Under the pieces are notes generated by a model. That model made no database searches, was not told the origin of the DNA, and was given only the letters and a program-made list of their open reading frames with translations. A DNA stretch of 32,000 bases from Candidatus Heimdallarchaeota archaeon (GTDB lineage Archaea; Asgardarchaeota; Heimdallarchaeia; JABLTI01): contig JAUWKS010000012.1 of assembly GCA_030614005.1 (NCBI GenBank), forward strand, positions 30,001-62,000, read 5' to 3'. A program made the translations under genes and the position numbers. Shown here one piece after another: positions 4,604 to 27,389 of the stretch. How positions within the stretch are numbered: position 1 is the first letter of the stretch; each line of letters starts with the position of its first letter.

Positions 4604-4714
4604 GGGCCGGTAGATCAGACTGGAAGATCGCCTGATTTGCAATAGATAAAAGGCTGCGGGCCAAATCTAAAAAATTTCAGGAGGCCGTGGATTCAAATTC
4701 CACCCGGTCCACCA
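4604..4714 (+). tRNA. tRNA-Ala(UGC) with a 34-nt intron (4642-4675) and encoded CCA
   Basis: Acceptor stem GGGCCGG/CCGGTCC with G3:U70; D stem GATC/GATC; anticodon stem CCTGA (4631-4635)/TCAGG (4677-4681); anticodon TGC at 4638-4640; T arm GTGGA-TTCAAAT-TCCAC; ACCA end. The intron at 37/38 folds via TAGAT/ATCTA and GGC/GCC. Confidence 0.92.
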
Positions 4715-4715
4715 C
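4684..4715 (+). repeat. tRNA-Ala 3'-end repeat, copy 1 (within the intact tRNA; att-like)
   Basis: GCCGTGGATTCAAATTCCACCCGGTCCACCAC; recurs at 21074, 24649, 27390 and 28419. Confidence 0.95.
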
Positions 4716-4829
4716 CTTCTTTTCTCTTTTCCACCTCGTTCTGTCCTTCTTTTTATTTTTATTGTGTGGTATCTGTTACCATTAAAAATTGGATTAATAG
4801 AACAAAATTATTTTTACTCATTTTAAAAC

Positions 4830-5465
4830 CTAGAGTTCGAAAAATCTCTTTAGCTTAACAGGATCAGCTCTATCTTCATCATCAATCAGTATAAACACAC
4901 CGACATTTCTTTTGATGTATTCCTTGCTCCAGTCCTCTTTTATCTTCCATCCTCCTGTTGCAAACACTCCGTTATCCATATCGTAGAAAGGAACATGGGT
5001 GTGGCTGAGGATAATTTTATCTGTCTGAAGAATCTTTGGAAGAAAGTCTATGCTGTTAGTTATTAACTGTTTCTTCATGTTAGTTGCCGCTTGATTCCAA
5101 GTTTCATTCACTCGTTTCTTAAGACCAATGTTATGTCCATGGCAGATGATAAACCGACCTTCTAGAGTATTTAGTTTCACATAGGGAACTACTTGGATGT
5201 CCGGTCTATCGAATAGCAAGTTTCCTTCGTGTCCCATCCCACCTGTTACAAAGACTAACTTTTCCTTAAATCCCTTCTCAATACTCCAGTCAACAAAAGA
5301 GTCTAATGCCTCCTTTCCTGTTTCATCGAAATTATCTAAGAAATCACCGTTCATAATAATTATATCTACTTTCTTTGACGCGCTTTCTAGCGCTTCTTTG
5401 AATTCATCCTCTAAACATCCTTCTGCACCTAGATGTACATCACCAACCACTATTGCAAGAGTCAC
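4830..5465 (-). CDS. Calcineurin-like metallophosphoesterase
   Basis: GDVH, NGDFLD, GGMGHE (in place of GNH[DE]), CHGH and SHTH motifs. The GTG start overlaps the helicase TGA stop (GTGA). Confidence 0.85.
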   Translation of the reverse strand: MTLAIVVGDVHLGAEGCLEDEFKEALESASKKVDIIIMNGDFLDNFDETGKEALDSFVDWSIEKGFKEKLVFVTGGMGHEGNLLFDRPDIQVVPYVKLNTLEGRFIICHGHNIGLKKRVNETWNQAATNMKKQLITNSIDFLPKILQTDKIILSHTHVPFYDMDNGVFATGGWKIKEDWSKEYIKRNVGVFILIDDEDRADPVKLKRFFEL

Positions 5466-7777
5466 CCCGCTAGATCCTCCTTTGTCTTTTGTACTAAAAA
5501 TGAGTTGACTATTCCAATAGAATCTTCTGATACATTAGCAAATAAAGGTAAGATTGACTCTTGAGTTTGCTTATTTATTAGAGCTTCATTAACTAGTTTC
5601 CTCATTTGTTCTGCTACTTTTTGGAATTCTCTAAAAAGAAATGCCGCATTGCCTAACTCTCCACCTCTATCATAAATAACTATTTTATTCTCGTGTACGT
5701 TCACCACTGTTCTAAAAGAGGGCTCTGAAATATGCAATGCTATTTCTGTACTCTTTAGAATAAGGTCTTTCAATAAACTTAGTGCTTCTCTTTTCTTTTT
5801 ATTGCTTGACTTCTTAGCTGAAAAAGTCACCTCTACTAAGAAACCACTAGTTTTCTCTTGCGAGTGGAAAACCTGCTCGTCTTGATGATTATCATCTATT
5901 TTGTTACCTGTTTTCGTGTACCTCACAACTTCAGCAGTTTCTCTTTGAATGACCATTTTGCCAAATCGAATATTTAGTTCAGCAAATCTAAACACTCGTG
6001 CCTGTTTGTCAATTTGGATAGAAGGAGCCTTTAGTTTGTTTTGTTCAATTGATGATTTATTAATTTGAAGCTTTTCTACAACAATCTTCCTCTCTAGCGA
6101 TTTTTCAACTCGGTAGATATCTCCCTGTCTTCCTAGGTAAAGGAGGTTACCCTCTAAAGCCGTTCGTAATATTCTTTGCTCCTCAATTTCACCAATTATC
6201 CGTTCAAAATTATTATCAAGACTTCTCTCAACTAGTAACCTTCTTTGCCCTGCAGATCGAATTTTGTGGTTTCGTATGAACTGTAATAGCTCTTGTTCAT
6301 CAGCTATAATTAATTCACGTCTATCAGCAGAAACTTTGTGATTTATAGTTCGAAGAATGCCGTCTGCTATTAGCATAACGATTGCTGTCTGAGTTATTTG
6401 CTTGCTTTCCAATGTTTTGCTGAAAGCAAGAATTTCTTCAATTGTTGTTATCCCCATATATATTCTGAATAACACAAAAGCTTTCATTCTTTGTAAGGAC
6501 TGTGAGTTAAACAATATTTGTTCAGCAGTGTTCTCTTCAAGAATGGTCTTTATTATTCGATAATTTTCCAAATAATACTTATCCAATACTCGTTCTGTGT
6601 CTAATATTAGTGTAAAATTCTTTTTCTGAGAAATATCTTGAAATCGCAATCTTCCCATTCTTTGTATTAGCCCATTCTTACCTGTTATCGGCCAGCCTAT
6701 ATTGATAATATGTTGAATTTTTGGTATATCTATTCCTAACTCAAGCAATGATGTAGTGAATAGAAATCGAAGTGATCCATCCATTATTCTCTTTATAATA
6801 TCTGCTTTATCAGATTCTGTTAGTTGACTATTGATACACATAAATGGTGAGTTTTGTTTTACTATCTCTAATGGTAAATCTGTTTTTATCATCAATTGTT
6901 CATTAAATTTCGCCACTAACTGACTGACTTTTTGCACACTATCAATGAATACTAAACATATTCCCCCTATCCTTTGAAGATGTGGGTCGATTCGCTCAAG
7001 TATGAATTGTTCTAGTGAATCCTTAGGAAGGATCATCACTCGAATCACTCCCCTTTTGCCTACAGCTTTTACAATCTTTGCGCTTGGCAAGAAATTATCT
7101 CGAAATGAAGCAACATCCTTTACTGTAGCTGAAGCAAGAATTACTCTTAACTTTGGATTCGTTTGTTTAAAGGCTGCAATAAACTCTCGAACATGAGTTA
7201 AATATCCTCCCGAACCTGCATGTATTTCGTCAAATACCATTATATCAGTTTGTTTAATCCAGTCGAGAAAACCATATTTATCTTCCTTGAAACGTCTGTA
7301 GAACAATTTATCTAAAGTTGCCAAGATGATCTGTGGTTTCTTCTTCTCAATTTGTTCCAAGTCTTGTTTTGATAGGTCGCCATTGTATCTGCTATAGGTG
7401 ATCTTTTTCCCTGTTGCTTCGAGAATATGATTGCAATAGCGAGTTAATCTTTGTTCCTGGTCAGCAGCAAGCTGCTTGGTTGGATAGATAATGATTGCAT
7501 TAGAAATCTTCTCATCTATTAATTCTTTAAGTATTGTAAATAGAAACACTTCTGTTTTTCCAGCACCAGTCCCTACTGTGAGAAAAAGGTCATCACCAGC
7601 AAGAATTTTCTTCATAGCTTCAATCTGGTATTTGTAAAGAGTGTAGGGAAACGCTTGTTTCAATGCTTTACCAAGCTTCACCATACCTACTTCAGGATCA
7701 TCAATATAATGATTAGTTTTCTCACTCTCTTGTGGTTGGATATTAAAGGTTGCTTTAACGATGCAGTGGTTTGGCAA
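5462..7777 (-). CDS. SF2 DEAD/DEAH-box helicase, Lhr/Hrq1(SftH)-like
   Basis: Q motif LYKYQ, Walker A GTGAGKT, YPTKQLAADQ, DEIH, SAT, TSLLELGIDI and QRMGR. No C-terminal Cys cluster of the DUF1998 type is seen. Confidence 0.9.
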   Translation of the reverse strand: MPNHCIVKATFNIQPQESEKTNHYIDDPEVGMVKLGKALKQAFPYTLYKYQIEAMKKILAGDDLFLTVGTGAGKTEVFLFTILKELIDEKISNAIIIYPTKQLAADQEQRLTRYCNHILEATGKKITYSRYNGDLSKQDLEQIEKKKPQIILATLDKLFYRRFKEDKYGFLDWIKQTDIMVFDEIHAGSGGYLTHVREFIAAFKQTNPKLRVILASATVKDVASFRDNFLPSAKIVKAVGKRGVIRVMILPKDSLEQFILERIDPHLQRIGGICLVFIDSVQKVSQLVAKFNEQLMIKTDLPLEIVKQNSPFMCINSQLTESDKADIIKRIMDGSLRFLFTTSLLELGIDIPKIQHIINIGWPITGKNGLIQRMGRLRFQDISQKKNFTLILDTERVLDKYYLENYRIIKTILEENTAEQILFNSQSLQRMKAFVLFRIYMGITTIEEILAFSKTLESKQITQTAIVMLIADGILRTINHKVSADRRELIIADEQELLQFIRNHKIRSAGQRRLLVERSLDNNFERIIGEIEEQRILRTALEGNLLYLGRQGDIYRVEKSLERKIVVEKLQINKSSIEQNKLKAPSIQIDKQARVFRFAELNIRFGKMVIQRETAEVVRYTKTGNKIDDNHQDEQVFHSQEKTSGFLVEVTFSAKKSSNKKKREALSLLKDLILKSTEIALHISEPSFRTVVNVHENKIVIYDRGGELGNAAFLFREFQKVAEQMRKLVNEALINKQTQESILPLFANVSEDSIGIVNSFLVQKTKEDLAG

Positions 7778-7779
7778 GT

Positions 7780-8298
7780 CTAATTCTCTCCTTGGATTTT
7801 AGCAGCGTATAAAATTGAAAATATTGAACTAAATTCATCCTTTAAAAAATCATTTATTTCTTCATCGGTTGTATATTCTTCTCCTTTCGAATAAAATTGG
7901 ATTATTCCAGAAATGCATTTTGTTATCGCTTCTTTTCTTCCCTCTCGAGATAAGAATCTGATATTTGATGAAAAATTTTGAATTATTATTTCTTCTTCAC
8001 GTTCTTTTAGAGCGATTTCTTTATTCAATTTTGTTCTATTATATAATTCAGCATGTGCTTGTGGACTAATTTGTAAATGTGGAGGTAATGCTTGCCCTAA
8101 TGCGAGACTGTTATAGAGTTGAACCAAATTATCTAATTGGGAACCTTCTTTCAATCCAAAACGATATTTGTACTTTTGTCCAATACGCCATATTAGACCT
8201 TTTTTCTTCAACTCCTGAAGAGTTAGATACGTTTCTGTAAGAGCTATACCTGCTCCATCAGCTATTACTTTGGCTTTTTTTTGGATAGGCAATTCCAT
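7780..8298 (-). CDS. Hypothetical protein with a probable N-terminal winged HTH
   Basis: AKVIADGAGIALTETYLTLQELKKKGLIWRIG follows the TrmB/wHTH pattern. Confidence 0.5.
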   Translation of the reverse strand: MELPIQKKAKVIADGAGIALTETYLTLQELKKKGLIWRIGQKYKYRFGLKEGSQLDNLVQLYNSLALGQALPPHLQISPQAHAELYNRTKLNKEIALKEREEEIIIQNFSSNIRFLSREGRKEAITKCISGIIQFYSKGEEYTTDEEINDFLKDEFSSIFSILYAAKIQGEN

Positions 8299-8334
8299 AT
8301 TTTATGAAATCACCTAACAAATACCATATCACTT

Positions 8335-9831
8335 TTATCGTATCCATTCTATTTCAAGCTCCTCAAATCGATTGCAATATTCAATTACTCTAGGAGAAAA
8401 TTTATTCGGTTGCAGGTTATTTTCTTCCAGAAAATCCTTCTCTCGGTCTTCAAAAAGGAGAGACGAAGATTTAGAACAAGTAAGGTTTTGTTCTACTTTC
8501 TTAGCAATTCGCTTATTTGGGTAATACACTAACGGTTTAAAATTCGCTTTTTTGATCTCCTCTTGACAGATCCTAAAGGCTATGTCCTTCATTTGTTCCC
8601 TTTCTTCTATGTCTAATGAAATCCATTGAGCAGATAATCGCCAGAATTTCACAGGTATCTCTCTTTCACAATCTATTATCTTTACCATTAATTGCTTTTC
8701 AAGAAATTTCTGATGAATAGCTGAGAGTAAATTATCAAATTCAACAATAAATTGCTTACAAGCTTCTCTGAAGGTTCGATAGGTTTTTCCATTGAAGTAA
8801 CATGGTTCACTAAATAATTGTTGTTTGAGCTTGTAAAGCATCTCTTCTCCTCTTTTGTTAACAACATAGACAATCTCCCCTTTAAATACATCAAGTTTAT
8901 CAACTAATGAATTAGTTATTCTTTTGTCAAGAATAGCATGTACTAGCTTTATGTGTCCTGCGAACTTTAACGCTTCACACAAATCAAGCACCAGTCCCAT
9001 CCATGATAGATCAGAGTAATAACTGAAATGACTAAATCCCCCAACACCTAGATACTTTAAATCTAATTCATCAAGTATATTCCACAATTCCTCCTCACAG
9101 AGAATGAACATATAATTAAACAGAACATCTCCTTTTGTACATGCCATTGTTTTGTAATTGCCTGTTGTTCTTTTATGTAGATATAATCGATTGGACACTC
9201 GATTGCTGATAGCAAAATCAAAAGTGCTTATTAGTTCATTAGTTACCATCCAAGTAATATCTGCTGCTGATGCTTCTGAAAGATTACAGAGAACACTTGT
9301 ATTACAATTATATCCATAAAGATAGGCATCACATATTGCATCAACAAAAAGCTGCCACTTTTGTTTTTCTGAAGAGAACCCTCGCAATGTTTGAACCAAG
9401 GCTAATCGATTAGATAGATTCGACCGCCAAAAGACATTGTTTAATCCAAAAGAAAATCGCATTACATCTACCGTAAGAGCTCTTTGACAGTCCATTCGCT
9501 CAACTTTAAACCATCCTTGAGGAGAAGAAATGCGAACATAATGGCACCCTGCAGAAACTAATTGTTGTTTTATCTCCTCAGAAATTCCCTGATAGTCATA
9601 TACGAATTGTATTACTGACAAATTATATTGAAGCTTGTCTACATGAAGATTATAATCTTTAATAATCACTTGTTGTCCAGGCAGTATTTGAAAACCTAAG
9701 CTCACTTTATTCTTTTTCCGGGCTTCATCAAGCGTTAATCCAGTAAGTTTATACACTTCTTCATTGAAGATATGTTGATTATCCTTAACACATAATATAT
9801 ACTGTTGATCATCCTTTCTACTTTTACTCAA
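8335..9831 (-). CDS. Highly diverged Cas1-like endonuclease/integrase with a C-terminal extension
   Basis: Cas1 motifs in the expected order: N-terminal beta domain (LSVIQFVY..ISEEIKQQLVSAGCHYVRISSPQGW), SEASAADITW, DVLFNYMFIL...GFSH...GLVLDLCE, and VNKRGEEMLY...GKTYRTFR. Recognised by eye only. Confidence 0.68.
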   Translation of the reverse strand: MSKSRKDDQQYILCVKDNQHIFNEEVYKLTGLTLDEARKKNKVSLGFQILPGQQVIIKDYNLHVDKLQYNLSVIQFVYDYQGISEEIKQQLVSAGCHYVRISSPQGWFKVERMDCQRALTVDVMRFSFGLNNVFWRSNLSNRLALVQTLRGFSSEKQKWQLFVDAICDAYLYGYNCNTSVLCNLSEASAADITWMVTNELISTFDFAISNRVSNRLYLHKRTTGNYKTMACTKGDVLFNYMFILCEEELWNILDELDLKYLGVGGFSHFSYYSDLSWMGLVLDLCEALKFAGHIKLVHAILDKRITNSLVDKLDVFKGEIVYVVNKRGEEMLYKLKQQLFSEPCYFNGKTYRTFREACKQFIVEFDNLLSAIHQKFLEKQLMVKIIDCEREIPVKFWRLSAQWISLDIEEREQMKDIAFRICQEEIKKANFKPLVYYPNKRIAKKVEQNLTCSKSSSLLFEDREKDFLEENNLQPNKFSPRVIEYCNRFEELEIEWIR

Positions 9832-9832
9832 T

Positions 9833-11875
9833 TCAATTCCTCCTCATTTTCTTTCTCTTTTGAATCAATTTGAATGTAGTATTACACATTGAACAGCTAA
9901 CAGGTTTCAATCCCTGAGCTGGTCTATCATCTGTGCCAAAATCTTCAATTACAATTTCTCTCCCCTCCACTAAACAAGTAGAACATAAATAAGCATATAT
10001 CTCTTTTTTATCTGCTGAATATCCCACAAAACTTCTGGTAATTGCATCATAGAATTCTTCAACAGTATAAATTATAGTTACCTTTTCTTTTCTTATAAAA
10101 TGCTTGCAACCAACAGTTGTACTTCTGAGTGTTTTGGTAGCTCGAATATGGTTCTCACTTGAAACTTTTCGTTCAGCTATATTTATTGCTCTTCGCCAGA
10201 ACATACAACGTCTTTTTTCAAACCAATGACAATCCCCACAAACGACTTTGAAATGTGCCGGGAAATCTTTACTTGTATAATAATCAAGACTTCTCCCCAA
10301 GGGTGGTTTGGCTGTTAGCGTCTTCACAGGATACCCACTTTTAGATAGACTTTGGATTGCTTGCTTTGCTTCAAAAGGATTAATGGTAAGCATTGAGCAA
10401 ATTTTGTTTTGAGTAATAGGAGACTCAGTATTTGCCAGCAGTTCTTTTAGTGCTCGTTCAATTGTTTGTCTATCCATTTTCTTATTTATTGGTGATTCCT
10501 CAACATCATAGGATTTTTGCAAAACTCTATTCAAGAGCTTTAGACTTTCTCTTGAATCTTGAGTCATCTGATCTCTAAAGCAATTTAACATCTGGGTAAT
10601 TTGGAAAAGTACATAACTATTATTAGAAGCTGCTAGAATACTAGCAATGGTTTCCTCTTCATCTTTGAGAATATCTAACCTACCGATTAAAAATTGCAAA
10701 TCATCAAATTGTAATTTCCCTCGTGTAAAATCGCTAAATATTTCCTGTACTAGTTCCCATGTAATGATGTCATTCTCAGTTTTTTTTCGGATAGTTCTCA
10801 AAAACATCATAGGATCGTTTAGCATCTCTTCAAAGTAGGTTGAAGCAATAATGTATTGTCTTCCAAATGTAGTCAAAGTGAAACGACTATAACTACTTTG
10901 ATCTTTCTTTACTAAAGCAAATGCTCCTAGATGTCTTTCTTGCAAACTCTCAAATAGGGATATATTTTGGAAGTATTTCGTATGGAAAATTAATTCAGTA
11001 AGGTGCTGTCTCATTTCATCATCTGTTTTCTTTTTCTTTGCTTGATATATTCGAAAGTACGTTGCTTTCTGTAATCGTTCAATGAGTTGTTTTTTCGAAG
11101 GGGATCCTGAATATAAACAAAACAGAATAATACTCAAGAAAGCATCTTGTAATGCGTCCTCGTTTAATTCTTGATATATAGCTCTCACAGCCTCATTTGT
11201 TGAGATCATTATGTTATTAAATCCTCTTTCAATTTCTTCGGCAGGAATCAATCCGGTAGAAATAAAATGCTTTCGTACATGTGTTCTCTCTCGTTGAGGT
11301 AGAAGCAAAAGGATTGGGTCAATGTTATCAGAAATCCAAGACTTGCGAGCTCTATTAAGCGACTTATTCTCATCAAATGGATCAATGAAAATATACGCAT
11401 TGACGATTGGCAGCTGGACTTTTGCTTTCAAAGCATCGTCTCGACTCTTTCGATATAACAGATTTCGAGTCAACGTGTTATAACTTGTTATGATTAGCTT
11501 ATTCGCTGCTAGAGGGTGACTGTTTCCTTTAAATTTTGAAAACGTAGAAGCAATCTTCATCCCTGCAAGAGTTTTTTTGGAGGTCTCTGCAGTAACTTGA
11601 TCCTCATCGTAATTAGCATAATTATAGATTTTCTTGGCTTGTTCAGAGGTTCGAACAATAATCATTGCTGTTTGGTCGGATAATCTAGCTGAAAGTAAAG
11701 CTATAGTGGTAGCTAATTGTAACTGGTCTTCAGGGAGAATTTCATAAAAAAATATGTCTGTTTCACATAGAACCGTTTTTCGAATAATGCTTAAGTTATC
11801 AACACAAGTAAATGGATAATCTCGAAAGATAGTGGTTATGCTAATGGGTAATTGTGTTCTATAAGTTGTTATCAT
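9833..11875 (-). CDS. Hypothetical protein: degenerate Ski2/Hel308-like helicase segment, winged helices and Cys-rich C-terminus
   Basis: MIIVRTSEQAKKIY, LIITSYNTL and YIFIDPFD resemble decayed motifs Ia, Ib and II. ATYFRIY...FTLTTFGRQYIIASTY resembles the Hel308 winged helix. The C-terminus has CGDC..C..C plus CSTC/CSMC. No Walker A. Confidence 0.45.
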   Translation of the reverse strand: MITTYRTQLPISITTIFRDYPFTCVDNLSIIRKTVLCETDIFFYEILPEDQLQLATTIALLSARLSDQTAMIIVRTSEQAKKIYNYANYDEDQVTAETSKKTLAGMKIASTFSKFKGNSHPLAANKLIITSYNTLTRNLLYRKSRDDALKAKVQLPIVNAYIFIDPFDENKSLNRARKSWISDNIDPILLLLPQRERTHVRKHFISTGLIPAEEIERGFNNIMISTNEAVRAIYQELNEDALQDAFLSIILFCLYSGSPSKKQLIERLQKATYFRIYQAKKKKTDDEMRQHLTELIFHTKYFQNISLFESLQERHLGAFALVKKDQSSYSRFTLTTFGRQYIIASTYFEEMLNDPMMFLRTIRKKTENDIITWELVQEIFSDFTRGKLQFDDLQFLIGRLDILKDEEETIASILAASNNSYVLFQITQMLNCFRDQMTQDSRESLKLLNRVLQKSYDVEESPINKKMDRQTIERALKELLANTESPITQNKICSMLTINPFEAKQAIQSLSKSGYPVKTLTAKPPLGRSLDYYTSKDFPAHFKVVCGDCHWFEKRRCMFWRRAINIAERKVSSENHIRATKTLRSTTVGCKHFIRKEKVTIIYTVEEFYDAITRSFVGYSADKKEIYAYLCSTCLVEGREIVIEDFGTDDRPAQGLKPVSCSMCNTTFKLIQKRKKMRRN

Positions 11876-11881
11876 CCTACT

Positions 11882-12520
11882 TCACTCCTGGTTTAGCAAT
11901 AGCTCTTCTAGGTGTTCGGGCAGAGAAAGCAACTCCTCGCCAACAAACCGATCGATGTACTCCGCCATTTCTATCTCGAGTGATTCAGGAGAGCTCTCAT
12001 CAATAATCGAAACTGGGAACTTGTCCAGAAATTCCTCACTCAATTCTTTCACTGTTTCTTGTTTGTTTGTCACTCTTTCAATAATAGTTTCTAAGTGCTT
12101 CTTGCTAGTTTTAAGTTGCAGTAAAAATGAATCATCAGGTTCTTCTGCGAGTTGACTTTGGATTTGCATTTTTATATTGAATTCTGGTTGACTGATTATC
12201 AAAATAAATTGGAGAAGGTTATTATTTATCTCAAAAAGCAATGGTTGAGTGTCTGATCGTGGTAGTTTTTCAATTATCAACCATTCAGTTAGTTTCTTGA
12301 CTTTCTGTTTGAATGTCATCAAGCTCATTTTCTCTAGCACTTGATTGTACAATGACAGTACGGATGGGTACGTCACTTGACCGAATTTTATTAAATTATT
12401 TACTAGCAACTCACAGATAACTAGCAAATTAGCAGTGATTTTAATGTCTGGATTATCCAATTCCACTGAATTCGCTGGAACTGATTGTTGAAAAGCACTA
12501 GTGTGAGTCATTTCCGTCAA
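11882..12520 (-). CDS. Hypothetical protein with an acidic C-terminus; first gene of the operon
   Basis: 212-aa ORF (TTG start; ATG at 12511 is an alternative) ending 6 bp before the next gene. No motif recognised. Confidence 0.7.
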   Translation of the reverse strand: MTEMTHTSAFQQSVPANSVELDNPDIKITANLLVICELLVNNLIKFGQVTYPSVLSLYNQVLEKMSLMTFKQKVKKLTEWLIIEKLPRSDTQPLLFEINNNLLQFILIISQPEFNIKMQIQSQLAEEPDDSFLLQLKTSKKHLETIIERVTNKQETVKELSEEFLDKFPVSIIDESSPESLEIEMAEYIDRFVGEELLSLPEHLEELLLNQE

Positions 12521-12575
12521 TAATTTAAAGGAAAATTATGTTTTTAAAGTACTAAAAGTATAAAAAAACGAAAAG

Positions 12576-12596
12576 GTTCGAAAGAAGAGTTCGAAA
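12576..12596. promoter_or_regulatory. Tandem GTTCGAAA sites (palindromic TTCGAA core) upstream of the Cas1-like operon; possible operator
   Basis: GTTCGAAA at 12576-12583 and 12589-12596, next to an AT-rich TATA-like stretch upstream of 12520. Confidence 0.3.
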
Positions 12597-12745
12597 AGAA
12601 GGCAGGATAAGGCTTCTTTTAACTCTACGGAAGATTACTTTATGTCCCTTTAGAATTATATGTAATCCCATTTTTTCCTTTTTTTCTGTATTTTTGCCCT
12701 TTCTTTGAGAAATTTTCTCTTTGATTTCTCTAAATTTCTCGTGTC

Positions 12746-12839
12746 GGAACGACGACCGTTAAAAAAGACCACCGAAGTGTGGGCTTTTAGGTCGCACGAG
12801 GGGAGCGTTCAGCGACAGTTTTTTGGTCAAGGACATTCC
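12746..12839 (-). ncRNA. Candidate structured RNA or cis-regulatory element
   Basis: GC-rich patch with nested helices on the minus strand: GGAAUG/CGUUCC, GACC/GGUC, A6/U6, GUCGC/GCGAC and a C(UUCG)G tetraloop. Confidence 0.45.
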
Positions 12840-12909
12840 CTCTTACTTCTGAGCTGTGAATTTTTCTCAAAATTTTTTTGCTTCTTAAAATTGCAGAGTT
12901 ATTCTTAAA

Positions 12910-14556
12910 TTACTCTTTTTCCGTACATAATACAAAAAATGTTTTTACATACTGGTGTAGGACAGAATTTTGAATAGTGTTTGTTTTTACTATTTCTATT
13001 CCAAACCGATTTTTCAAATCTGTATAAAGTCTCTTACTATTATTTAGAACAATTAGATAATCCTTGCAGTATGCCAAAGATTTCAATAAGACAAGTAAGT
13101 TATCATTAGGTTTTAGATTTAATCTAGCTATAGTTTTCCTCGAACGGAAATGATAATGATCATTTTGTTCAAGAAAAAGCATTAACTGATGAGGTACGTT
13201 AGAGAATAAAGGTAGAAGCTTGAGAAGATGAGTGATAGGAAGATTTCCAGTGTATTCATAAGCAGCTAACCGACCTTTTTTTATTTCCAAAAAATCTGCT
13301 AAATCTTGCTGAGTCCAATGGTTATTTTTACGAACTTTTCGCAAATAATTAGTGCAATCCGGAATTAGAAGCATAGGGAGAAGTTCAAAATTAAAGAAAG
13401 TAGTATCATTTATGGTAATAAGAGCTTCAGGATTAATGTCTTTAACATACAAACGTTCGAATAATTTTGTTTTCCTGCTCTTTAGATATTGTAATAAATA
13501 CTCTATCTTAGTTATATGCCTTGATTTAAGATAATTACCTATTATATCTTTAGAGATTGCCATAATTTGAAGAACATAACTTTCACCATAAATTGATTTG
13601 TGATGATAAATGGAATACTTAATTTTATATTGATCCAATACTTTTCCAAAAGCTTGTACAAATTGTCTTGATGCAGATGAAAAACTAATACCTCTAATAT
13701 AAGAACCATCAGCATCCAATACTCCACTCCAGAATTCCCAGCGAAGAGTCTCATCCGACGTAAAAATAAGAGGTTCTTTCAAGGAATCATATTTTTTCCC
13801 AGTAATAGGTTGGTCTGTAAGGAAATTGGTTAACCTAACAATCCATTTGTTATTCAAATGCAACAACCAAATCTTCTTTTCACCTGATATTTTGCCTTGA
13901 ATACCAAATAATTGATTTGCTAATTTTTGCATCATAAGCATGTGGTCTTGTGAGAAATCCACCAATTCTATATTATGGTAGTTCAAGTGACCATCACCAA
14001 TGACTACTCCCAAAAAATAAGCTAAATCTTTTGAGAGTCTTGTAGGCATATGGAAGTGTTCTCCCCGAGCAGATTGGAAAGGAACATATTCTTGTGTGAG
14101 GAATTCTTGCCAAAAGTCACTTAACCGGAAAAGAGGGAAAGGCAGTCGCTGCTGGTTTTCAGTATAGTCGATGATCTTTTGTTGCCACTTCTTGATAGAA
14201 TAAGCAATAGCTGTATCTTGAAAATAATAACTGCATCGCTCAGCTAAAGCAAGTGATTGTTTTCTAATCTGTTGGGAAATCTCACAAGGTAATGTAACAT
14301 AAGGCAATCGCTGTAATAATCGTTCTCCTGACTTAAAATCGATTTTACGAATCAAAATGGAGTAAAGATTTAGGATATTAGGTTCAAGGAATATTTTTGA
14401 TTGCTTATTCAGCTCAATTAGTTTATTCGCTGTTAGCCACTGGTTTTTAGGTGTGGGCAAGTTATCAATAAGCAAAAAGTCTGTTTGCCAAGATTTAGGG
14501 ATTTCATCAAACATCTTATTGAGTACTTTGTAATTGGGAATATAAAACTCCCCCAA
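12910..14556 (-). CDS. Stand-alone double-motif LAGLIDADG endonuclease-like protein with an XRE-type HTH
   Basis: LAYFLGVVIGDGHL and FWSGVLDADGSY motifs; WTQQDLADFLEIKKGRLAAYE HTH. No intein splicing termini seen. Confidence 0.85.
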   Translation of the reverse strand: MGEFYIPNYKVLNKMFDEIPKSWQTDFLLIDNLPTPKNQWLTANKLIELNKQSKIFLEPNILNLYSILIRKIDFKSGERLLQRLPYVTLPCEISQQIRKQSLALAERCSYYFQDTAIAYSIKKWQQKIIDYTENQQRLPFPLFRLSDFWQEFLTQEYVPFQSARGEHFHMPTRLSKDLAYFLGVVIGDGHLNYHNIELVDFSQDHMLMMQKLANQLFGIQGKISGEKKIWLLHLNNKWIVRLTNFLTDQPITGKKYDSLKEPLIFTSDETLRWEFWSGVLDADGSYIRGISFSSASRQFVQAFGKVLDQYKIKYSIYHHKSIYGESYVLQIMAISKDIIGNYLKSRHITKIEYLLQYLKSRKTKLFERLYVKDINPEALITINDTTFFNFELLPMLLIPDCTNYLRKVRKNNHWTQQDLADFLEIKKGRLAAYEYTGNLPITHLLKLLPLFSNVPHQLMLFLEQNDHYHFRSRKTIARLNLKPNDNLLVLLKSLAYCKDYLIVLNNSKRLYTDLKNRFGIEIVKTNTIQNSVLHQYVKTFFVLCTEKE

Positions 14557-14559
14557 AAA

Positions 14560-15009
14560 CTACTTGAAATACTTCTCTTTTTGAATTAACCATTCAACTT
14601 TGTAGGCTGCTAAATCATTTACAGAAAAAAATTCATATCCTGCTTTCCAAAGGATTAAACCAATTATTATAGCTGATCGACCAAGAACATCAGTGATATC
14701 AATTAGTAATTCCTCTTTGGTTATATCATAATAATGTTGCAGGTAATATTCAGAGAGAAAGAGCATTTCAAGGGAATTTTGAGATGAATCCAATTGATAA
14801 AGTGCTCCTGCAAGATAAATTCGAGCTAAATCGCTTTCAGTAGAAATTAACTCATGTTTAATTTGATTAAATGTAACCTCATTAGTAAAGGTAGCAAGAG
14901 CCCAACAAGCTTTTGCTCTAACCACAACGTCGTCATTTTCAACCAGTAAAGCTATAGACTGCATGTCATTTGTACTAAATAATTCAGTAAGCAGAGCTTC
15001 TCTATTCAT
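14560..15009 (-). CDS. HEAT-repeat-like protein
   Basis: DDVVVRAKACWALATF and DLARIYLAGALYQL helical repeats. Confidence 0.55.
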   Translation of the reverse strand: MNREALLTELFSTNDMQSIALLVENDDVVVRAKACWALATFTNEVTFNQIKHELISTESDLARIYLAGALYQLDSSQNSLEMLFLSEYYLQHYYDITKEELLIDITDVLGRSAIIIGLILWKAGYEFFSVNDLAAYKVEWLIQKEKYFK

Positions 15010-15021
15010 AGTATGGAATCC

Positions 15022-17220
15022 TCATTCAATATGAATTTCAACATTATCTACCCAAGATGTTACACCAAATAAACTTTGTTGACTCTCAAGAAATGATTTA
15101 TTGACTTTCACATAAAGAATAGCTTTGTCGGCATTAAGAAGGTTTTTTCGAAACTCAAGTAAATTTGCTGCTTCTTTTATTAGGTGTGGAAGATCTGGTT
15201 CGTAAGAGATATTACTCCGATCTTTACAGCTGACTAATATCATCTTGTCATTTTGGAAGGCAATATGATCAATTTCAAATGGCTTACTGATATTTGAAAG
15301 GAAAACATTTGAAGCTACTTGATAGTCTTCTGTTATTAGCCTATCTCGTATTTCTTGCTCATAAGTTGTTCCATCTCCTCTTCGATTTTTAATATCATGA
15401 ACTTTTATTGATAATGGCAATTTTTCTTGTAGTTGTTTTTTATATTGAAGAAGAACTAGCAAGTTTGAATTCTGTGTTAATTGATACTTGAGTTCGAGTA
15501 TTCCAAAATAATCCTTCTCAACTAGAAATGAATGAATCATTTGAAATACTGTACGTCTATTTGGTTCGATAACTTTTTCAGAAATTACACCTAAATCAAC
15601 ATTCGTTTGTTGAGATTCTCTGTTAACAACATCTTTTATGTAAGAATAGAGTAATTGGAAGTCAGTTACTGAAATATTCATCAATAGGCAGTATTCAGTA
15701 ATATTGGGTGAGTTTAAAGAGGTGATTACTGACAAACATTCTAATGCTTCATTTTGCAATTCTGCCTTAGATACAACTTCGCTTGTTATAGGATGAATTT
15801 GACTTGATTTATTTTCAGTTAGTAAAGCTTGTTTTTTTGAGTATTCTAACATAGAGTCAATTATTAAATCTAGTGAATCCCTTATGTTCATAGTAGCCGA
15901 TAAACCAATGAGAAGAACCCCACAAGATAAACCATATTGTTTAGTTATTTGAAAATGAGTGTGTAAACGCAAAATATCTTGATTAATAAATAAGAATGGA
16001 AACACATACACAAATTTATTAATTTTTCTTGTTGTGTGTAATAAATCTGCTATTGCATATTCAAGCTCACTACTAAGTGTTTTATCTGATGTTTTTATCT
16101 CACACAGTAGTAGAAATTGTAAACGTTTGTTTACGGCTATTACATCAACAATTTTTCTATTACCATTGATATTTTCATCTGAATTATTGAAGTTTAATAA
16201 TACTTCAGGTAGTAGTATCAAATCTCTTGTGGTTGCAAATTGTTTTATAATATTCCTAACCAACAACTCATATGAGAAATCGCAATGGTCACCCAATGCA
16301 CTGGAATATGACTTGAGAGTTTTGAGAGAAAGGCCTCTGCACTCAAGAAGAGACATTAGTTGTAAATCTTTTTCTGCAATTTCTGTTAACTCAAAATCTG
16401 GAGATGAGAATAAAACCGTAATTGATTTTCTTTTCCCACAATAAGGAAAATAAAGACATTTCTCAGGCTTTCTTCCAGTGTGCTGTCTGATTATTCGAGT
16501 TTCAATAATCATTGTTTCTTCACCATCTTTAGAAGCAATTACTAATTCTGATTTTTTAAACCAATCTTTGATGTAATGATTCAATTGGTATGACAAGGAA
16601 ATAGATCCACCATCTGTTAATGTTCCAATTGCCTTAATAAAAAGTAAACCTTTATCTCTATAGATTGTGAATTTACGATTTCCTTTACCGCCATTGATAA
16701 TGGGTGTTAGTAAGCATACGTTCGGTAGTTGTACGGAATTTAATAGAGTTAGAGCTTTTTGATACTTCTTTGTTGGTATAAAGTATGAGTTATTTATCAT
16801 ATTAATCTGGCAAATAATTATTTCCCTATGTTGGAAATCTGATGAATTTGAAAGATGAATGTATATACCATTTTTAATTTTAGTAATTTTAATGAGAATG
16901 TTAAGGTAATGGGTTCCTGCTGAAACTGACTTGATTTGTATTTGCAATATGTTAGATCTATTTCCAATTTCAAACCATTGAGTTATTTCCTTTGGTATGT
17001 TGATTATGCTATTTTTTAATATCCGTCCCTTTAATTCTATTATTCCATTAGAATATATACTAAAACCATTTTTCTTTGATGTCATATCTTTTTGAAAGAC
17101 TAATTCCTTTTCCATTTTCATAGTTTTTGAGATATTGTTTCCTAACACCAGAGTCATAATTATCAATATAATATAAGAGTAAGGAGTTATAAGTATTTTG
17201 TGGAAATCCAAACTTTCCAA
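15022..17220 (-). CDS. Large protein with two putative PD-(D/E)xK restriction-like nuclease domains
   Basis: YELLVRNII...IVDVIAV...LCEIKTS and TYEQEIRDRL...EIDHIAF...LVSCKD. The true start may lie downstream of the TTG. Confidence 0.6.
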   Translation of the reverse strand: MESLDFHKILITPYSYIILIIMTLVLGNNISKTMKMEKELVFQKDMTSKKNGFSIYSNGIIELKGRILKNSIINIPKEITQWFEIGNRSNILQIQIKSVSAGTHYLNILIKITKIKNGIYIHLSNSSDFQHREIIICQINMINNSYFIPTKKYQKALTLLNSVQLPNVCLLTPIINGGKGNRKFTIYRDKGLLFIKAIGTLTDGGSISLSYQLNHYIKDWFKKSELVIASKDGEETMIIETRIIRQHTGRKPEKCLYFPYCGKRKSITVLFSSPDFELTEIAEKDLQLMSLLECRGLSLKTLKSYSSALGDHCDFSYELLVRNIIKQFATTRDLILLPEVLLNFNNSDENINGNRKIVDVIAVNKRLQFLLLCEIKTSDKTLSSELEYAIADLLHTTRKINKFVYVFPFLFINQDILRLHTHFQITKQYGLSCGVLLIGLSATMNIRDSLDLIIDSMLEYSKKQALLTENKSSQIHPITSEVVSKAELQNEALECLSVITSLNSPNITEYCLLMNISVTDFQLLYSYIKDVVNRESQQTNVDLGVISEKVIEPNRRTVFQMIHSFLVEKDYFGILELKYQLTQNSNLLVLLQYKKQLQEKLPLSIKVHDIKNRRGDGTTYEQEIRDRLITEDYQVASNVFLSNISKPFEIDHIAFQNDKMILVSCKDRSNISYEPDLPHLIKEAANLLEFRKNLLNADKAILYVKVNKSFLESQQSLFGVTSWVDNVEIHIE

Positions 17221-17272
17221 AATATGCTTAAATTGCGAAAAATACTTAATCTATAAGGTAAAATAAGTAACT

Positions 17273-17440
17273 ATGAAATTCATAGGTAGCGCTAAACTCT
17301 ACGGAAAAAATCAAATCACCGTCCCAAAAGAAGTAGTAGAAGAATTGAAGTTAAAACAAGGAACACAAATCATCTTCCTTCAAAACGATGAAGGTTACGT
17401 GTATATCGTAACTGAAGTTGCTTTACCATCTAAAGAATAA
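17273..17440 (+). CDS. AbrB/MazE/SpoVT family DNA-binding protein (55 aa)
   Basis: Below the ORF-track cutoff. MKFIGSAKLYGKNQITVPKEVVEELKLKQGTQIIFLQNDEGYVYIVTEVALPSKE has the QITVPKE..E.L.LK.G signature. Confidence 0.85.
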   Translation: MKFIGSAKLYGKNQITVPKEVVEELKLKQGTQIIFLQNDEGYVYIVTEVALPSKE

Positions 17441-17896
17441 GAGAGCCCTATTGATTCTTTTTTTTTAGATTCTTAGGAACAGTTCGTGTGTCAAATCGTA
17501 AACAATTATCATCAACATACTCTCCGGAATTATCCCAATGTGTCATTTTTAACATACTTTTATCAGTACTTATACACTTATCTTCAGTTAATCCTTCTCG
17601 TAATATTTGGAAACTCAAGTAAGAAAAAGGATCATAAGGAGGGAAAGGTGATAATTTAACCTTTTACAAGATGAAAAAGTATTAATTTTCATTACAAGTG
17701 AAGTTGAAATATCGTATCCAAAGGGCTAATAGAGATGAAAAGTCAAGGATTATTTGACCAGTAAACAAAATTAGTAAAGACGACTGATTTAGAATTTGAC
17801 AGATTGAAAAGTTCAACTAGTAAAGCAAACCAAAAATTGAAATATATACTAGAATAAAAAGATCTTATTCTAATGAGTATTAAGCAATGACTAGAC

Positions 17897-20815
17897 TTAA
17901 ATTTTATAATTTATACAATCATCTGAATGAAACTCTTTTTTCTTGCAGAAAAATGGTAGTCCAGGTTTTATAAGGTTTTTATTTTCTTCTTCAAAATGCT
18001 TACATGCGTTATTCAATTTAAGAAGTAGTTCTAATGGATCAAAAATTTTTTCAGTATCTTTTAATCCATAAAAATAGGCTTTTCTTACAGCGTTATCTAG
18101 TTCTTCATGTAATTTTTTTAGAATATTATCTCCGGGTAATTCTAAGGTTCTATATATTTCTCTTAATGACAAATGCTTTTCGTCTCTTAGTTTGTTCCGG
18201 GTTATTCTTAATTCTCTAGCTTTATTTGCTACATCAATACAGAGTTTAACTTTTTCATCCAAGTTATCTTGAATATCAATATCATTTATAACACCAAATT
18301 GAGGCCAGGGAAAAGTATTATAGATTGTTGTTATTGTATATCTATAATCTCCTTTCAAAGTTGAACAACGTGCTTTTATCCATTCCCAATGAAATGAACT
18401 CTGTAAAATACCAAATGAATAATCATCACCTAAAGGAAATGCTATTAGTGCATCATTTGGTCGAATATTTGATGAAACAAAATCAAATATGGATCTTTTT
18501 GCAACCCGACTACAAGCAATGTATCTTGGAATATTCTTGATTAGGTTAATTAAATCCTTTCTAGTTCTCCAAAATAACCACCATTTCTTTAAATGATTTT
18601 GACGAACGGTATCTTTTTTCTCTAGTTTTTCATATAGCTTCATTTCTTCATCAGCTTTTTGTTCAATTGTTGGGAGAACCTTTTGTTTTATTATTTTAAA
18701 TGGGGTTTTAAATTTCTGTGCATCAAATAAAGACATCGATTGAAAATCTATCACTAATCGGTCTGGTCGAGATTTTATATTACCCAGCATTGCGTTTGCT
18801 ATTAAGTAAGGAAAAATTACTTCTCTCGCTTTAGGTTCCTTTTTGAAAATATCTTTAGCTTGTTGTCGAGATAAAATAAACCCACTGTGTCCATGAGTTT
18901 GACCTTGGTAACAAGTTCTTGAATTCTTATTTGTAATTAATGCTTTTGCTGAGATGACATCTAATTTTGGTGAAAGAGAAGAAGGTATCCATTTTAGATC
19001 ATATTCCTCGAGCAAATTATTGGGGTTTTTCTCATCATAGAATAGTAATTTCTTATTCTTAGATTCATCAGTCTCTCCCTTAATCCAATTTACAATGGAT
19101 ACGTGAACTTGAGCTTCCCCACTCCAAGGCATAGTGGAAACAGCTTCTATAATAGTTCCATTATTTTCAATAATATACTCCAACCCATCTTTTTTTGAAT
19201 AAGTTTGTCTAATTGTATTTGTACCAACAAGTCCTGCTTTACCACCTTCCTTTAACTTGTTATGAGCTTTGCGAAACCAATAAACACAGTAATCTACTCT
19301 ACCATTTACATCTGGATATTGTTTTCTTAACTTCTCCACATATTCTGGTCCAAATTCTTCAATCATCTTATTTTTAGCCTGAAAAGGAGGATTACCAATG
19401 ATTATATCTGCTTCGGGCCAGTCAATAAATAGGGCATCATCAATGATGAAATTTGTATTTAGATTATCAAAAGGTAATGGACTCTCTGCATCATAATTCA
19501 ACAAACGCTGACTATTGAATTCATTAAAAGTATCTATTGCATCTTTCTTAGCGAATGATAATGTTATTTTAGCAAGTTCAATAGCAAAAGGATTAGTATC
19601 AATTCCGAAAAATTGTGTTGATTTAATTTTAGATTGTAAAGAATGTTTTTTCTTTTCAAGTGATGGATATTCAGTTATCATTTTTCGTATTAAATCAAGT
19701 TCAATATGTTTTAATTCCCTAAACGCTACAGAGAGAAAATTACCACTTCCACAAGCAGGATCTAGAATTCTCATTTCACTTAAAGAGTTCCAAATCCTCT
19801 CCAACTCTTTTAATGATTTTGCCTCAGTTATTTTTAATCTAATCGGTCGAAGAATAGTTGGTTCTACTATTTTCATAATGTCTGATTCTCTTGTATAATG
19901 AGCACCATATTTGTGACGTTCATCTTTTCTTAGACTTGATTCAAATATATTGCCAAAAATAGCAGGTTGGATTTTAGACCAATCATGAAGAGCTACTGCG
20001 TGTAAATTTTCCAATTCACTCTTGCTTAATTCAATAGGTTGAATGATTTTAAAAATATCACCATCAAAATATGAAACTTCTTTAAATCTACCTCCTGTTT
20101 CTTTTTTTGTTGAATTCATCTTAGTAAAAAGTAATTTAAAAAGATCGTAGCTATTAGCTCCATTTATACAATCTTGAATTAATTCTGTGAAAAAACCTCG
20201 AACTGGAAATAAACCAGTATCTTCAGCAAAAAAACAAACTAAACATTGGAGTGTAAACCTTTGAGCTTTTTCATAATTAACACCTCTCTTTATTAAACTC
20301 AAATATAATTTTGCTATTTTTTGTGCTGCTACTTCTGTAACAGCAACTCTATCATTATTGAATATCGGTTTTATATCTCTTCCATGGTAAAGAAATGATA
20401 AAGCTCTCCATCTTTTCGCTAAATTATCTATATGTATTATATCAACTGGATCGGGTTGTTTGTTCCAATCAAATATCCAAAATTCATCAAAATTACACAA
20501 AATGACATAAGAAGGTCGCAATTTATAGATGTTTATCCAGTAGAATTTAGCTTGACTTATATGTTTGTTTAAATCTTCACCTCTTGATTTCATTTCTATC
20601 AATACTCTTTCAGGCCAAAATAAGTCTGCATAATAGGTTTTATTTTCGATTTTTATAGAGGCTTCAAAAGAAGCACCACACTCAAAAACCCCTTCATGTC
20701 CAAATGCTTCGAATAAATGGTTCAAGAATGTTTGGGATTCCTGTTTTTCTCTACCAGATAATTTTTTTGCAAAAGATAGAAATTCTTCAAGGTTGCTTTC
20801 AATTAGCTTTGTCAT
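17897..20815 (-). CDS. MmeI-like (Type IIL/IIG) fused restriction endonuclease / N6-adenine methyltransferase
   Basis: ADLFWPERVLIEMKS nuclease, ILCNF, ILDPACGSGNFL (SAM binding), GNPPF (catalytic) and a C-terminal TRD with YNTFPWP. Confidence 0.9.
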   Translation of the reverse strand: MTKLIESNLEEFLSFAKKLSGREKQESQTFLNHLFEAFGHEGVFECGASFEASIKIENKTYYADLFWPERVLIEMKSRGEDLNKHISQAKFYWINIYKLRPSYVILCNFDEFWIFDWNKQPDPVDIIHIDNLAKRWRALSFLYHGRDIKPIFNNDRVAVTEVAAQKIAKLYLSLIKRGVNYEKAQRFTLQCLVCFFAEDTGLFPVRGFFTELIQDCINGANSYDLFKLLFTKMNSTKKETGGRFKEVSYFDGDIFKIIQPIELSKSELENLHAVALHDWSKIQPAIFGNIFESSLRKDERHKYGAHYTRESDIMKIVEPTILRPIRLKITEAKSLKELERIWNSLSEMRILDPACGSGNFLSVAFRELKHIELDLIRKMITEYPSLEKKKHSLQSKIKSTQFFGIDTNPFAIELAKITLSFAKKDAIDTFNEFNSQRLLNYDAESPLPFDNLNTNFIIDDALFIDWPEADIIIGNPPFQAKNKMIEEFGPEYVEKLRKQYPDVNGRVDYCVYWFRKAHNKLKEGGKAGLVGTNTIRQTYSKKDGLEYIIENNGTIIEAVSTMPWSGEAQVHVSIVNWIKGETDESKNKKLLFYDEKNPNNLLEEYDLKWIPSSLSPKLDVISAKALITNKNSRTCYQGQTHGHSGFILSRQQAKDIFKKEPKAREVIFPYLIANAMLGNIKSRPDRLVIDFQSMSLFDAQKFKTPFKIIKQKVLPTIEQKADEEMKLYEKLEKKDTVRQNHLKKWWLFWRTRKDLINLIKNIPRYIACSRVAKRSIFDFVSSNIRPNDALIAFPLGDDYSFGILQSSFHWEWIKARCSTLKGDYRYTITTIYNTFPWPQFGVINDIDIQDNLDEKVKLCIDVANKARELRITRNKLRDEKHLSLREIYRTLELPGDNILKKLHEELDNAVRKAYFYGLKDTEKIFDPLELLLKLNNACKHFEEENKNLIKPGLPFFCKKKEFHSDDCINYKI

Positions 20816-21073
20816 TAACTACTTCCTTCTCATTTAGATATAAATAATTGTTGTTTAGAAATTATTAAAATTTGCGATTGCACAACCGTGTTCTTAACGC
20901 TTCCCACATTCTTTTTAGATTATGTAATTAAAGTATTTCTAACTCTTTACTCTGAAACATGTGTTTTTATTTCTCTATTAGTGAAGGGGAGAAAAAATAA
21001 ATGAATTTTTTAAGGTGATTTCTTCTTTCTATAAAAAGAACACTTCTATAAAAATATGCTGCTTTTAAAGGAT

Positions 21074-21105
21074 GCCGTGGATTCAAATTCCACCCGGTCC
21101 ACCAC
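21074..21105 (+). repeat. tRNA-Ala 3'-end repeat, copy 2
   Basis: Identical to 4684-4715 over 32 bp. Confidence 0.95.
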
Positions 21106-21219
21106 TTTCTTTTCTCTTTTCAGACTCGTTCTGTCCTTCTTTTCATTTTTATTTTGTGCTATCTGTTACCATTAAAATTTAGACTAATAGGACAAAATCA
21201 TTTTTGTTCATTTTAAAAC

Positions 21220-24622: not shown

Positions 24623-24645
24623 TTTCAGTTTTCCATTTCAAAAAA

Positions 24646-27372: not shown

Positions 27373-27389
27373 AAATATTCAACAACATA

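Follow-up and report, generated by a model that had tools for sequence, protein, structure and literature searches.

The 32,000-nucleotide stretch of DNA analysed here (the window) spans positions 30,001 to 62,000 of the forward strand of contig JAUWKS010000012.1 (assembly GCA_030614005.1) from a Candidatus Heimdallarchaeota archaeon. It contains an intact tRNA-Ala(UGC) gene, direct repeats of the 3' end of that gene and, between the first two repeats, a cassette of six tightly packed minus-strand genes, the third of which encodes a 498-amino acid (aa) protein with motifs resembling those of Cas1. To our knowledge, Cas1 occurs in two settings only: adaptation in CRISPR systems, together with Cas2, and casposons, together with a family B DNA polymerase (PolB) and terminal inverted repeats (TIRs). 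The protein of the window is genuinely, if very remotely, related to Cas1 and belongs to neither setting, and we hold, with somewhat more confidence than doubt, that it is the integrase of the tRNA-targeting element on which it is carried.

The Cas1-like protein is encoded at 8335..9831 on the minus strand by an open reading frame (ORF) with a TTG start. The ORF is real, and the strings that an earlier note on this DNA had quoted as Cas1 landmarks (SEASAADITW, DVLFNYMFILCEEELWNILDELDLKYLGVGGFSH, GLVLDLCEALK and VNKRGEEMLY...GKTYRTFR) were all found in its translation; judged by their conservation in homologues, these strings exceed what chance would give. Pfam returned no match to the 498-aa protein at E≤1, with the gathering threshold of PF01867 not reached, and no match was obtained in NCBIfam, PADLOC or PHROGs (reporting cut-offs E≤1 or 0.01); among PDB sequences, neither phmmer with the protein itself nor a profile of its family retrieved any Cas1. 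A word-indexed search of 5.8 billion proteins yielded 19 relatives, 42–93% identical to the query and nearly all of ~500 aa, whose named sources were all ‘Candidatus Heimdallarchaeota archaeon’. When 1.84 billion representatives were searched exhaustively with HMMER, distant relatives at 23–33% identity were added; these are proteins of 843–1599 aa with the Cas1-like region in their C-terminal part, and in two of them a PD-(D/E)XK (Cas4-type) nuclease domain lies upstream of the Cas1-like domain.

The family alignment served to build an AlphaFold2 model, which was of moderate quality (mean predicted local distance difference test score, pLDDT, 69; predicted template modelling score, pTM, 0.70) and comprised a β-rich N-terminal domain (residues ~47–100), an α-helical catalytic domain (~112–440) and a tail of ~55 aa with three helices. 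In a Foldseek search against PDB the top 50 matches were all Cas1 or casposase, the best being the casposase 6opm_B (E 1.5e-07) and A. aeolicus Cas1 2yzs_B (E 2e-07), in alignments of 340–400 columns that span entire Cas1 chains. An independent pass with VIA-align across 48,161 representative chains gave Z 18.3 against A. fulgidus Cas1 (4n06_B; 251 residues, 3.6 Å), 17.4 against the casposase (6opm_A) and 17.2–15.5 against five more Cas1 representatives, with 8.9 for the best unrelated chain; superpositions on Cas1 and casposase extended over ~245 residues at 3.2–3.6 Å. Matches among AFDB clusters were likewise mostly Cas1. The structural alignments cover residues ~106–444 of the model (~44–444 when the N-terminal domain is included), and the model, Foldseek and VIA-align together place the two-domain architecture of Cas1 in the 498-aa protein. 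Because these alignments reach ~437–444, the C-terminal tail amounts to ~55–60 residues and not to the ~120 extra residues that had been supposed to follow the Cas1 fold; the additional length of the protein is made up of this tail, a low-confidence N-terminal stretch of ~45 residues and insertions.

In the family alignment E186, N239, H268 and D283 are invariant across the 19 homologues, and 18 of them have E or D at residue 287 (N in P0012); the putative catalytic codons lie within 8971..9276 on the minus strand (E186 at 9274–9276, H268 at 9028–9030, D283 at 8983–8985 and E287 at 8971–8973). Further invariant positions in the same alignment are N183/E186/A190/W194, D235/L237/F238/N239, Y260-LGVGGF-H268-FS and W277-MGL-L282-D283. 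Six distant relatives (23–33% identity) retain E186, N239, H268, D283 and an E or D at 287, with a signature closer still to that of canonical Cas1 (EG.AA..MW, N.L.NY.F, G..G..H and GL.LD(L/F).(E/D)..K). For profile alignment, 20 genuine Cas1 proteins were extracted from Asgard genomes as the comparison set. With hhalign, the 19-member family alone aligned weakly with Cas1 (probability 2.6%, E 0.017), yet in the same register as the one proposed from the letters, whereas the family together with its distant relatives aligned with the 20 Asgard proteins over 244 columns at a probability of 77% (E 2e-05); significance was reached only once the distant relatives had joined the family profile. In these columns E186 corresponds to the catalytic Glu of Cas1, H268 to the His of GfLH, and D283/E287 to the LDlsE pair. 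The putative Glu, His and Asp/Glu metal residues, described in the earlier note as apparently intact and in the order of the Cas1 motifs, are therefore intact by their invariance and by their alignment with the catalytic columns of Cas1, and the protein, though highly diverged, is probably catalytically active. With Foldseek, VIA-align, AFDB and hhalign all returning Cas1, the proposed homology stands, and there is good support for placing the 498-aa protein in the Cas1 superfamily, as a member whose catalytic site is conserved; in our judgement this is close to certain.

That the protein is instead a catalytically dead relic, retained as a structural or DNA-binding subunit only, would accord with its extreme divergence (no Pfam match even at E≤1), with the poor modelling of the loop that bears the His, and with the fact that its neighbour in the cassette is itself a pseudo-enzyme (see below). 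We nevertheless regard this as highly improbable, because neither the Glu, the His and the Asp nor the Cas1 motifs around them vary down to 23% identity, and such invariance is not expected of a dead site.

Compared with Cas1 of CRISPR systems (A. fulgidus 4N06; Cas4-Cas1-Cas2), the protein has the same fold (Z 18.3) and the same catalytic motifs in order; its linkage here to a DExH helicase and to a metal-dependent phosphohydrolase brings to mind Cas1 with Cas2/3, and a Cas4-type PD-(D/E)XK domain accompanies it in some distant relatives. Unlike CRISPR Cas1, it is ~170 residues longer, the window holds no Cas2, array or effector genes, and the genome holds no canonical Cas1 or Cas2. A direct-repeat scan of the window showed coding repeats and tRNA-derived repeats only, and no CRISPR-like array; neither Cas2 nor PolB was found among window ORFs of at least 100 aa, and the whole genome (3.62 Mb in 126 contigs, 90% complete) gave no match to PF01867 or PF09827. 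Canonical Cas1 was present in 49 of the 121 genomes of the phylum. In the absence of Cas2, a CRISPR array, PolB and TIRs (the last considered below), the locus qualifies neither as an adaptation module of the standard kind nor as a classical casposon, as had been stated. Diverged Cas1 families of Asgard archaea had also been described as already reported; our literature searches found no paper that supports this and no description of the present Cas1-like family or its element, and neither Wu et al. 2022 nor Valentin-Alvarado et al. 2024 mentions Cas1 or casposons. HeimM2 is another element, of 8 kb.

The description of this Cas1 as ‘stand-alone’ did not survive, since the gene is the third of six in a conserved cassette, which is carried on an element integrated at a tRNA and keeps its gene order in every relative examined. 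The first gene (11882..12520, minus strand) encodes a 212-aa protein of no known family, without significant match in Pfam, NCBIfam or PADLOC; a gene of ~200 aa occupies this position in relatives, with sequence similarity detectable in most. The second (9833..11875, minus strand) encodes a 680-aa protein with a helicase-like fold, a winged helix-turn-helix (wHTH) domain and Zn-ribbons. Its first ~455 residues have the architecture of Ski2/Hel308-type helicases (VIA-align Z 18.8 with Slh1, 18.4 with Brr2, 17.7 with Hjm and 16.7 with Hel308), while its Walker A motif is missing and DPFDE stands where DExH would be expected; its C-terminal part carries the wHTH domain and the Cys-rich Zn-ribbons, the Cys columns of which are invariant. 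Given the lack of Walker A, the replacement of DExH by DPFDE, and the presence of the wHTH domain and Cys clusters, the 680-aa protein is most likely a DNA-binding pseudo-helicase. In two distant relatives other than those with the PD-(D/E)XK domain it is fused to the Cas1-like domain (P0023, BLASTP E 6e-25 over residues 99–721; P0024, E 2e-14), and by this Rosetta-stone argument the two proteins presumably work together as physical partners; the fused genes are followed, as in the cassette, by a DEAD/MZB helicase and a metallophosphoesterase. Prediction of a complex of the Cas1-like protein with residues 380–680 of the partner yielded single-sequence folds with pLDDT values of only 35–52. At a second copy on a 1.55-Mb Heimdallarchaeota contig (L026, 7902–9974), three ORFs (132, 367 and 131 aa) stand in place of an unbroken partner gene, which suggests a decaying copy.

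Downstream of the Cas1-like gene, the fourth gene (7780..8298, minus strand) encodes a 172-aa protein that is probably of winged-helix type (weak TrmB match, E 0.005) and conserved in position. The fifth (5462..7777, minus strand) encodes an active-looking DEAD/DExH helicase of superfamily 2 (SF2) with 771 aa (Pfam DEAD 2e-27, Helicase_C 2e-15), nearest to the cores of Lhr, MrfA, BrxHI and Cas3 (PADLOC BrxHI 8e-20 and Cas3 7e-19; NCBIfam TIGR04121 9e-27). The sixth (4830..5465, minus strand), which overlaps the helicase gene by 4 nucleotides (nt) and is the terminal gene of the element, encodes a 211-aa metallophosphoesterase (Pfam Metallophos 1.7e-06; PHROG DNA repair exonuclease 3.4e-07). 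These last two resemble the repair pairs formed by an Lhr-core/MrfA helicase and a metallophosphoesterase (MPE), which show the same translational coupling of a DExH helicase to a calcineurin-like phosphoesterase; the best NCBIfam match, TIGR04121, is that of a ligase-associated DEXH helicase, and an MZB domain is found in the helicases beside distant relatives. Unlike Lhr/MPE pairs, the present pair occurs invariably with the Cas1-like protein and the pseudo-helicase and has no ligase, and no MZB domain was detectable with Pfam in the 771-aa helicase of the window.

The cassette ends next to the tRNA-Ala(UGC) gene (4604..4716, plus strand), which is intact and intron-containing, has the G3:U70 pair and an encoded CCA, and was recovered both by Rfam (51.9 bits, E 1.4e-10, with a 36-nt insertion) and by ARAGORN run with introns; this gene is the target of integration. 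Its 3' end (~42–45 nt) occurs five times on the plus strand of the window, and elsewhere in the genome only as one match with two mismatches on another contig. The first copy of this attachment (att) repeat, at 4680..4721, is made up of T-arm, 3' acceptor strand and CCA plus ~5 nt; the second, at 21070..21111, shares with it 46 nt at 96% identity (E 2e-17), and further copies lie at 24645..24686, 27385..27426 and 28415..28456, the last two with one mismatch each in a 30-nt core. Of the tRNA, copies 2–5 retain no more than T-arm, 3' acceptor strand and CCA, together with a few nt, and the tRNA is intact only at copy 1. The repeats are co-oriented and separate segments of 16.4, 3.5, 2.7 and 1.0 kb, an arrangement that reads as the signature of serial integration at the tRNA gene.

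The first and largest segment, integrated element A (4717..21069, 16.4 kb), is bounded by repeat copies 1 and 2, and its tRNA-proximal end is taken up by the cassette. A conserved accessory module follows (12910..17220, minus strand; Pfam) and encodes a 548-aa LAGLIDADG+HTH protein, a 149-aa HEAT protein and a protein of 732 aa that weakly matches NERD/nuclease; this module accompanies the cassette in most loci, in either orientation and often with a small AbrB/MazE-like gene. Beyond it lies the variable cargo, an MmeI-family type IIG restriction-modification enzyme (17897..20815, minus strand; PADLOC REase_MTase_IIG 1123 bits, Pfam MmeI domains). Past copy 2, the left end of a decayed sibling, element B, was recognised at 21115..21711 (minus strand) as non-coding DNA 89% identical to the left end of A (246 nt corresponding to 4679–4924) and a 5'-truncated phosphoesterase gene, the ORF of which (21220–21690) is 79% identical in amino acids to residues 60–211 of the phosphoesterase of A; a longer version of element B, with the full phosphoesterase gene and ~1.2 kb of the helicase gene, was found in a metagenome contig (X5 record 26). 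Contigs from cold-seep metagenomes leave the sequence of the window exactly at the att boundaries 4716, 21067 and 21114 and pass into sequences absent from this genome.

The remaining segments of the array were seen to contain a single gene each, and no integrase: an 867-aa UvrD-family helicase with an N-terminal extension (24769–27372) between 24690 and 27384, and a DUF5615/PIN_10 protein (27441–27788) between 27430 and 28414. Another PIN-domain gene lies at 28727–29125, beyond the last repeat.

A second element with mapped boundaries was found in another genome (L001), where the Cas1-like protein is 43% identical to that of the window and a tRNA-Pro(UGG) gene converges on the phosphoesterase gene at a distance of 76 nt. 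The 3' end of this tRNA-Pro recurs 14.2 kb away as a copy of 33 nt in the same orientation (91%, E 2-3e-07), and the 14.2-kb interval brackets the same gene set together with a TPR gene; the MmeI restriction-modification gene is absent from it, and no PolB was found among the called genes of the locus. No tyrosine or serine recombinase was found with Pfam or PHROGs in element A or in the L001 element, and the whole genome of the window contains a single match to PF00589, which lies on a different contig (C58). Among the 12 loci with a readable flank, a convergent tRNA gene abuts the phosphoesterase end in seven (Ala, Pro, three Lys, Ala, and Glu at ~500 nt); one of these, a tRNA-Lys(CTT) at 48–160 of L050 with an apparent non-canonical intron in the T-arm, was missed by ARAGORN and by the Rfam gathering scan and was read by eye.

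The family was present in 6 of the 11 genomes of one genus and in none of the other 71 genomes of the class (82 in total), with 0–4 copies per genome, some of them truncated. A tree of 14 Cas1-like proteins resolved three well-supported clades, one of which is always located at tRNA-Lys(CTT) while in another, closely related members are found at Pro, Ala or Thr tRNAs or at none, and single genomes contain two or three of the clades. The patchy distribution, the decayed copies, the presence of close relatives at different tRNAs and the metagenome contigs that break at att boundaries together form a signature of mobility.

Genes for the integrases of genomic islands normally adjoin the tRNA. That the Cas1-like protein is the integrase of previously undescribed integrative elements of 14–16 kb in one genus of Heimdall-group Asgard archaea is the reading we favour, at odds only modestly better than even, because the cassette occupies the tRNA-adjacent position where such integrase genes are found, because the two mapped elements share the cassette at different tRNAs and have no other recombinase, and because the 3' end of tRNA-Pro is a known target of casposases and a site that permits tandem insertion (PMC5137440). 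The A. boonei casposase in particular integrates at this 3' end with a segment of the T-psi-C loop as determinant (PMC5137440). Casposases (family 2; A. boonei, M. mazei; 6OPM) have the same Cas1 fold and Glu/His/Asp-Glu site and no link to CRISPR or Cas2, and casposons are likewise mobile elements at the 3' end of an intact tRNA, with flanking direct repeats and tandem or sibling insertions at one site. The Cas1-like protein is only ~12% identical to casposase, below Pfam detection, and unlike casposons the element described here has neither PolB nor TIRs, encodes, besides the pseudo-helicase partner, both an SF2 helicase and a metallophosphoesterase, and uses several target tRNA species.

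In the mechanism that we propose, a Cas1-like dimer, positioned by its DNA-binding partner, would join the 3'-OH ends of the element to staggered sites flanking the T-arm and acceptor segment of the tRNA, as casposases do at tRNA-Pro and Cas1-Cas2 at a CRISPR repeat. Gap repair would then duplicate the T-arm/acceptor segment and leave the tRNA intact, and the 33–42-nt repeats would represent long target-site duplications (TSDs) of the length of CRISPR repeats. The helicase and phosphoesterase may process DNA ends, either for excision or so that intermediates of integration are repaired, in place of the casposon polymerase.

Several observations weigh against this assignment. Integration by the Cas1-like protein is inferred from elimination and analogy, and the loop 262–279 that bears H268 was modelled at pLDDT <50. 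Characterised casposases use TIRs as substrates, and none were found at the ends of element A, where the best local alignment between the terminal 200 nt scored 20 against a shuffled mean of 19.3. Direct repeats of 33–42 nt from the 3' end of a tRNA are what elements with tyrosine recombinases leave behind. The repeats of the element also include the whole T-arm, and exceed the TSDs of casposons, which measure 13–15 bp (PMC5137440). A very diverged recombinase may be present among the 212-, 149-, 172- and 732-aa proteins. Five of the 12 loci have no convergent tRNA at the cassette: in one (L028) the tRNA is co-directional and four have none at the phosphoesterase end, the tRNA of L029 lying on the other side. 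Distal att copies are known at two loci only; none were found in L027, L046, L053 or L054, the far ends of which may lie beyond the DNA examined or be decayed. In the contigs of four metagenome runs there was no empty-site contig (4716 joined to 21107) and no circular or end-to-end junction; as metagenome contigs drop rare variants, this carries no weight in either direction.

The combination of a helicase-nuclease cassette with restriction-modification, toxin-antitoxin and UvrD-type helicase neighbours also fits a defence island, and the main rival explanation is accordingly that the six genes are antiviral defence or DNA-repair cargo on a tRNA-linked island, with the Cas1-like protein acting as a structure-specific nuclease or DNA sensor alongside the helicase and phosphoesterase, and with the island owing its insertion to an unrelated recombinase, whether unrecognised, since lost or provided in trans. 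We take this to be a rather unlikely account, if a substantial one. Repair pairs of an Lhr-type helicase and an MPE are established, the helicase and phosphoesterase of the cassette resemble them, and the closest relatives of the helicase are defence or repair helicases (BrxHI 8e-20, Cas3 7e-19, Lhr-type TIGR04121 9e-27); no PADLOC model, however, matches the Cas1-like, 680-aa or 212-aa proteins. The neighbouring MmeI enzyme, UvrD-like helicase and PIN toxins are in keeping with defence, as is a patchy, multi-copy distribution, whereas it counts against this account that the cassette is not placed at random in the island, the phosphoesterase end abutting an intact tRNA in 7 of the 12 loci and in both elements with mapped boundaries. 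The lack of TIRs on element A and a length of att repeat typical of tyrosine-recombinase sites both favour this account, and the segments at 24690–27384 and 27430–28414, each with one defence-type gene and no cassette, must on this account have been inserted by something else. On the other side, two independent elements at different tRNAs carry the same cassette and neither has a recombinase, and the genome as a whole yields only the one PF00589 match. Islands and proviruses with tyrosine recombinases (such as HeimV1 of Heimdallarchaeum, PMC8813620) share with the present elements the insertion at a tRNA 3' end, att-like repeats of 30–45 nt, tandem arrays, defence cargo and an integration module adjoining the tRNA; they differ in that here there is no tyrosine or serine recombinase, and a Cas1-fold protein stands in the usual place of the integrase gene.

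CRISPR repeats span the length of the ~35–42-nt repeats of the array, and the length of repeats in CRISPR adaptation is that of the segment duplicated here. The array could also be read as the product of a DNA-capture system, a macro-scale analogue of CRISPR spacer acquisition or of an integron, in which the Cas1-like machine inserts its own element and other DNA segments at the tRNA-proximal repeat. The five repeats are co-oriented, with the most intact unit nearest the tRNA and the mismatched repeats furthest from it, the cassette-free inserts have no integrase of their own, and the target logic of casposases permits tRNA-proximal tandem insertion (PMC5137440). Any site-specific recombinase would nevertheless produce the same array by serial integration and decay, segment B can be shown to be what is left of a decayed sibling of A and not a captured fragment, and such an array was seen at the window locus only, L001 having a single element; we consider capture quite improbable. 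The proposition that the Cas1-like protein, guided by its pseudo-helicase/Zn-ribbon partner, carries out polarised insertion of kilobase segments at the tRNA-proximal copy of a repeat of ~40 nt, duplicating the repeat each time, likewise strikes us as improbable. If it were true, the array would be the living counterpart of a CRISPR array on a macro scale: an intermediate that links casposon transposition with spacer acquisition, works without Cas2 or polymerase and operates in the archaeal lineage closest to eukaryotes.

A third, deeply diverged lineage of Cas1 would widen the repertoire of Cas1-type integrases, and the system bears on how target recognition by casposases, with the tRNA T-arm as ‘leader’, became recognition of repeats. 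An integrase role would supply a new site-specific integrase able to carry 14–16 kb of cargo; the elements account for a set of ‘hypothetical’ genes in the genomes of Heimdall-group Asgard archaea, and show a route by which restriction-modification and other defence genes move among these genomes. Should the defence explanation be the true one, a new defence system with a Cas1-fold nuclease at its centre would be at hand.

Two non-coding blocks were observed between the LAGLIDADG gene and the first gene of the cassette. One, of ~95 nt (12722–12820, minus sense), is ~85–90% identical between clades whose proteins share only ~43% identity, and contains stems nested in one another (CTCGTG/CACGAG, CGACC/GGTCG) as well as an inner hairpin, the loop of which is of UUCG type, with compensatory changes in three pairs; it had no match in Rfam. 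One variant of its hairpin is common to the window locus and L046, both at tRNA-Ala. The element was rejected as a universal RNA component, being absent from clade II loci. The second block, of ~60 nt (12593–12659, minus sense; AAAGGGACATAAAGTAATCTTCCGTA...TCCTGCCTTCTTTTC), does not vary among the four clade-I loci, and a search that allowed up to 3 mismatches did not find it in the other clades.

The island as a whole is flanked by host-type Asgard genes, with a weak longin-domain match at 791–2161 and an Arf/Rag-like small GTPase with a C-terminal extension at 29244–30527. At three other loci, TnpB/OrfB_IS605 (Cas12f-like) genes adjoin the LAGLIDADG end of the element (L002, 183–1376; L026, 3343–4509; L029, 1658–3286), and in L029 a possible 20-nt fragment of tRNA-Arg (E 0.1) would bracket the TnpB segment.

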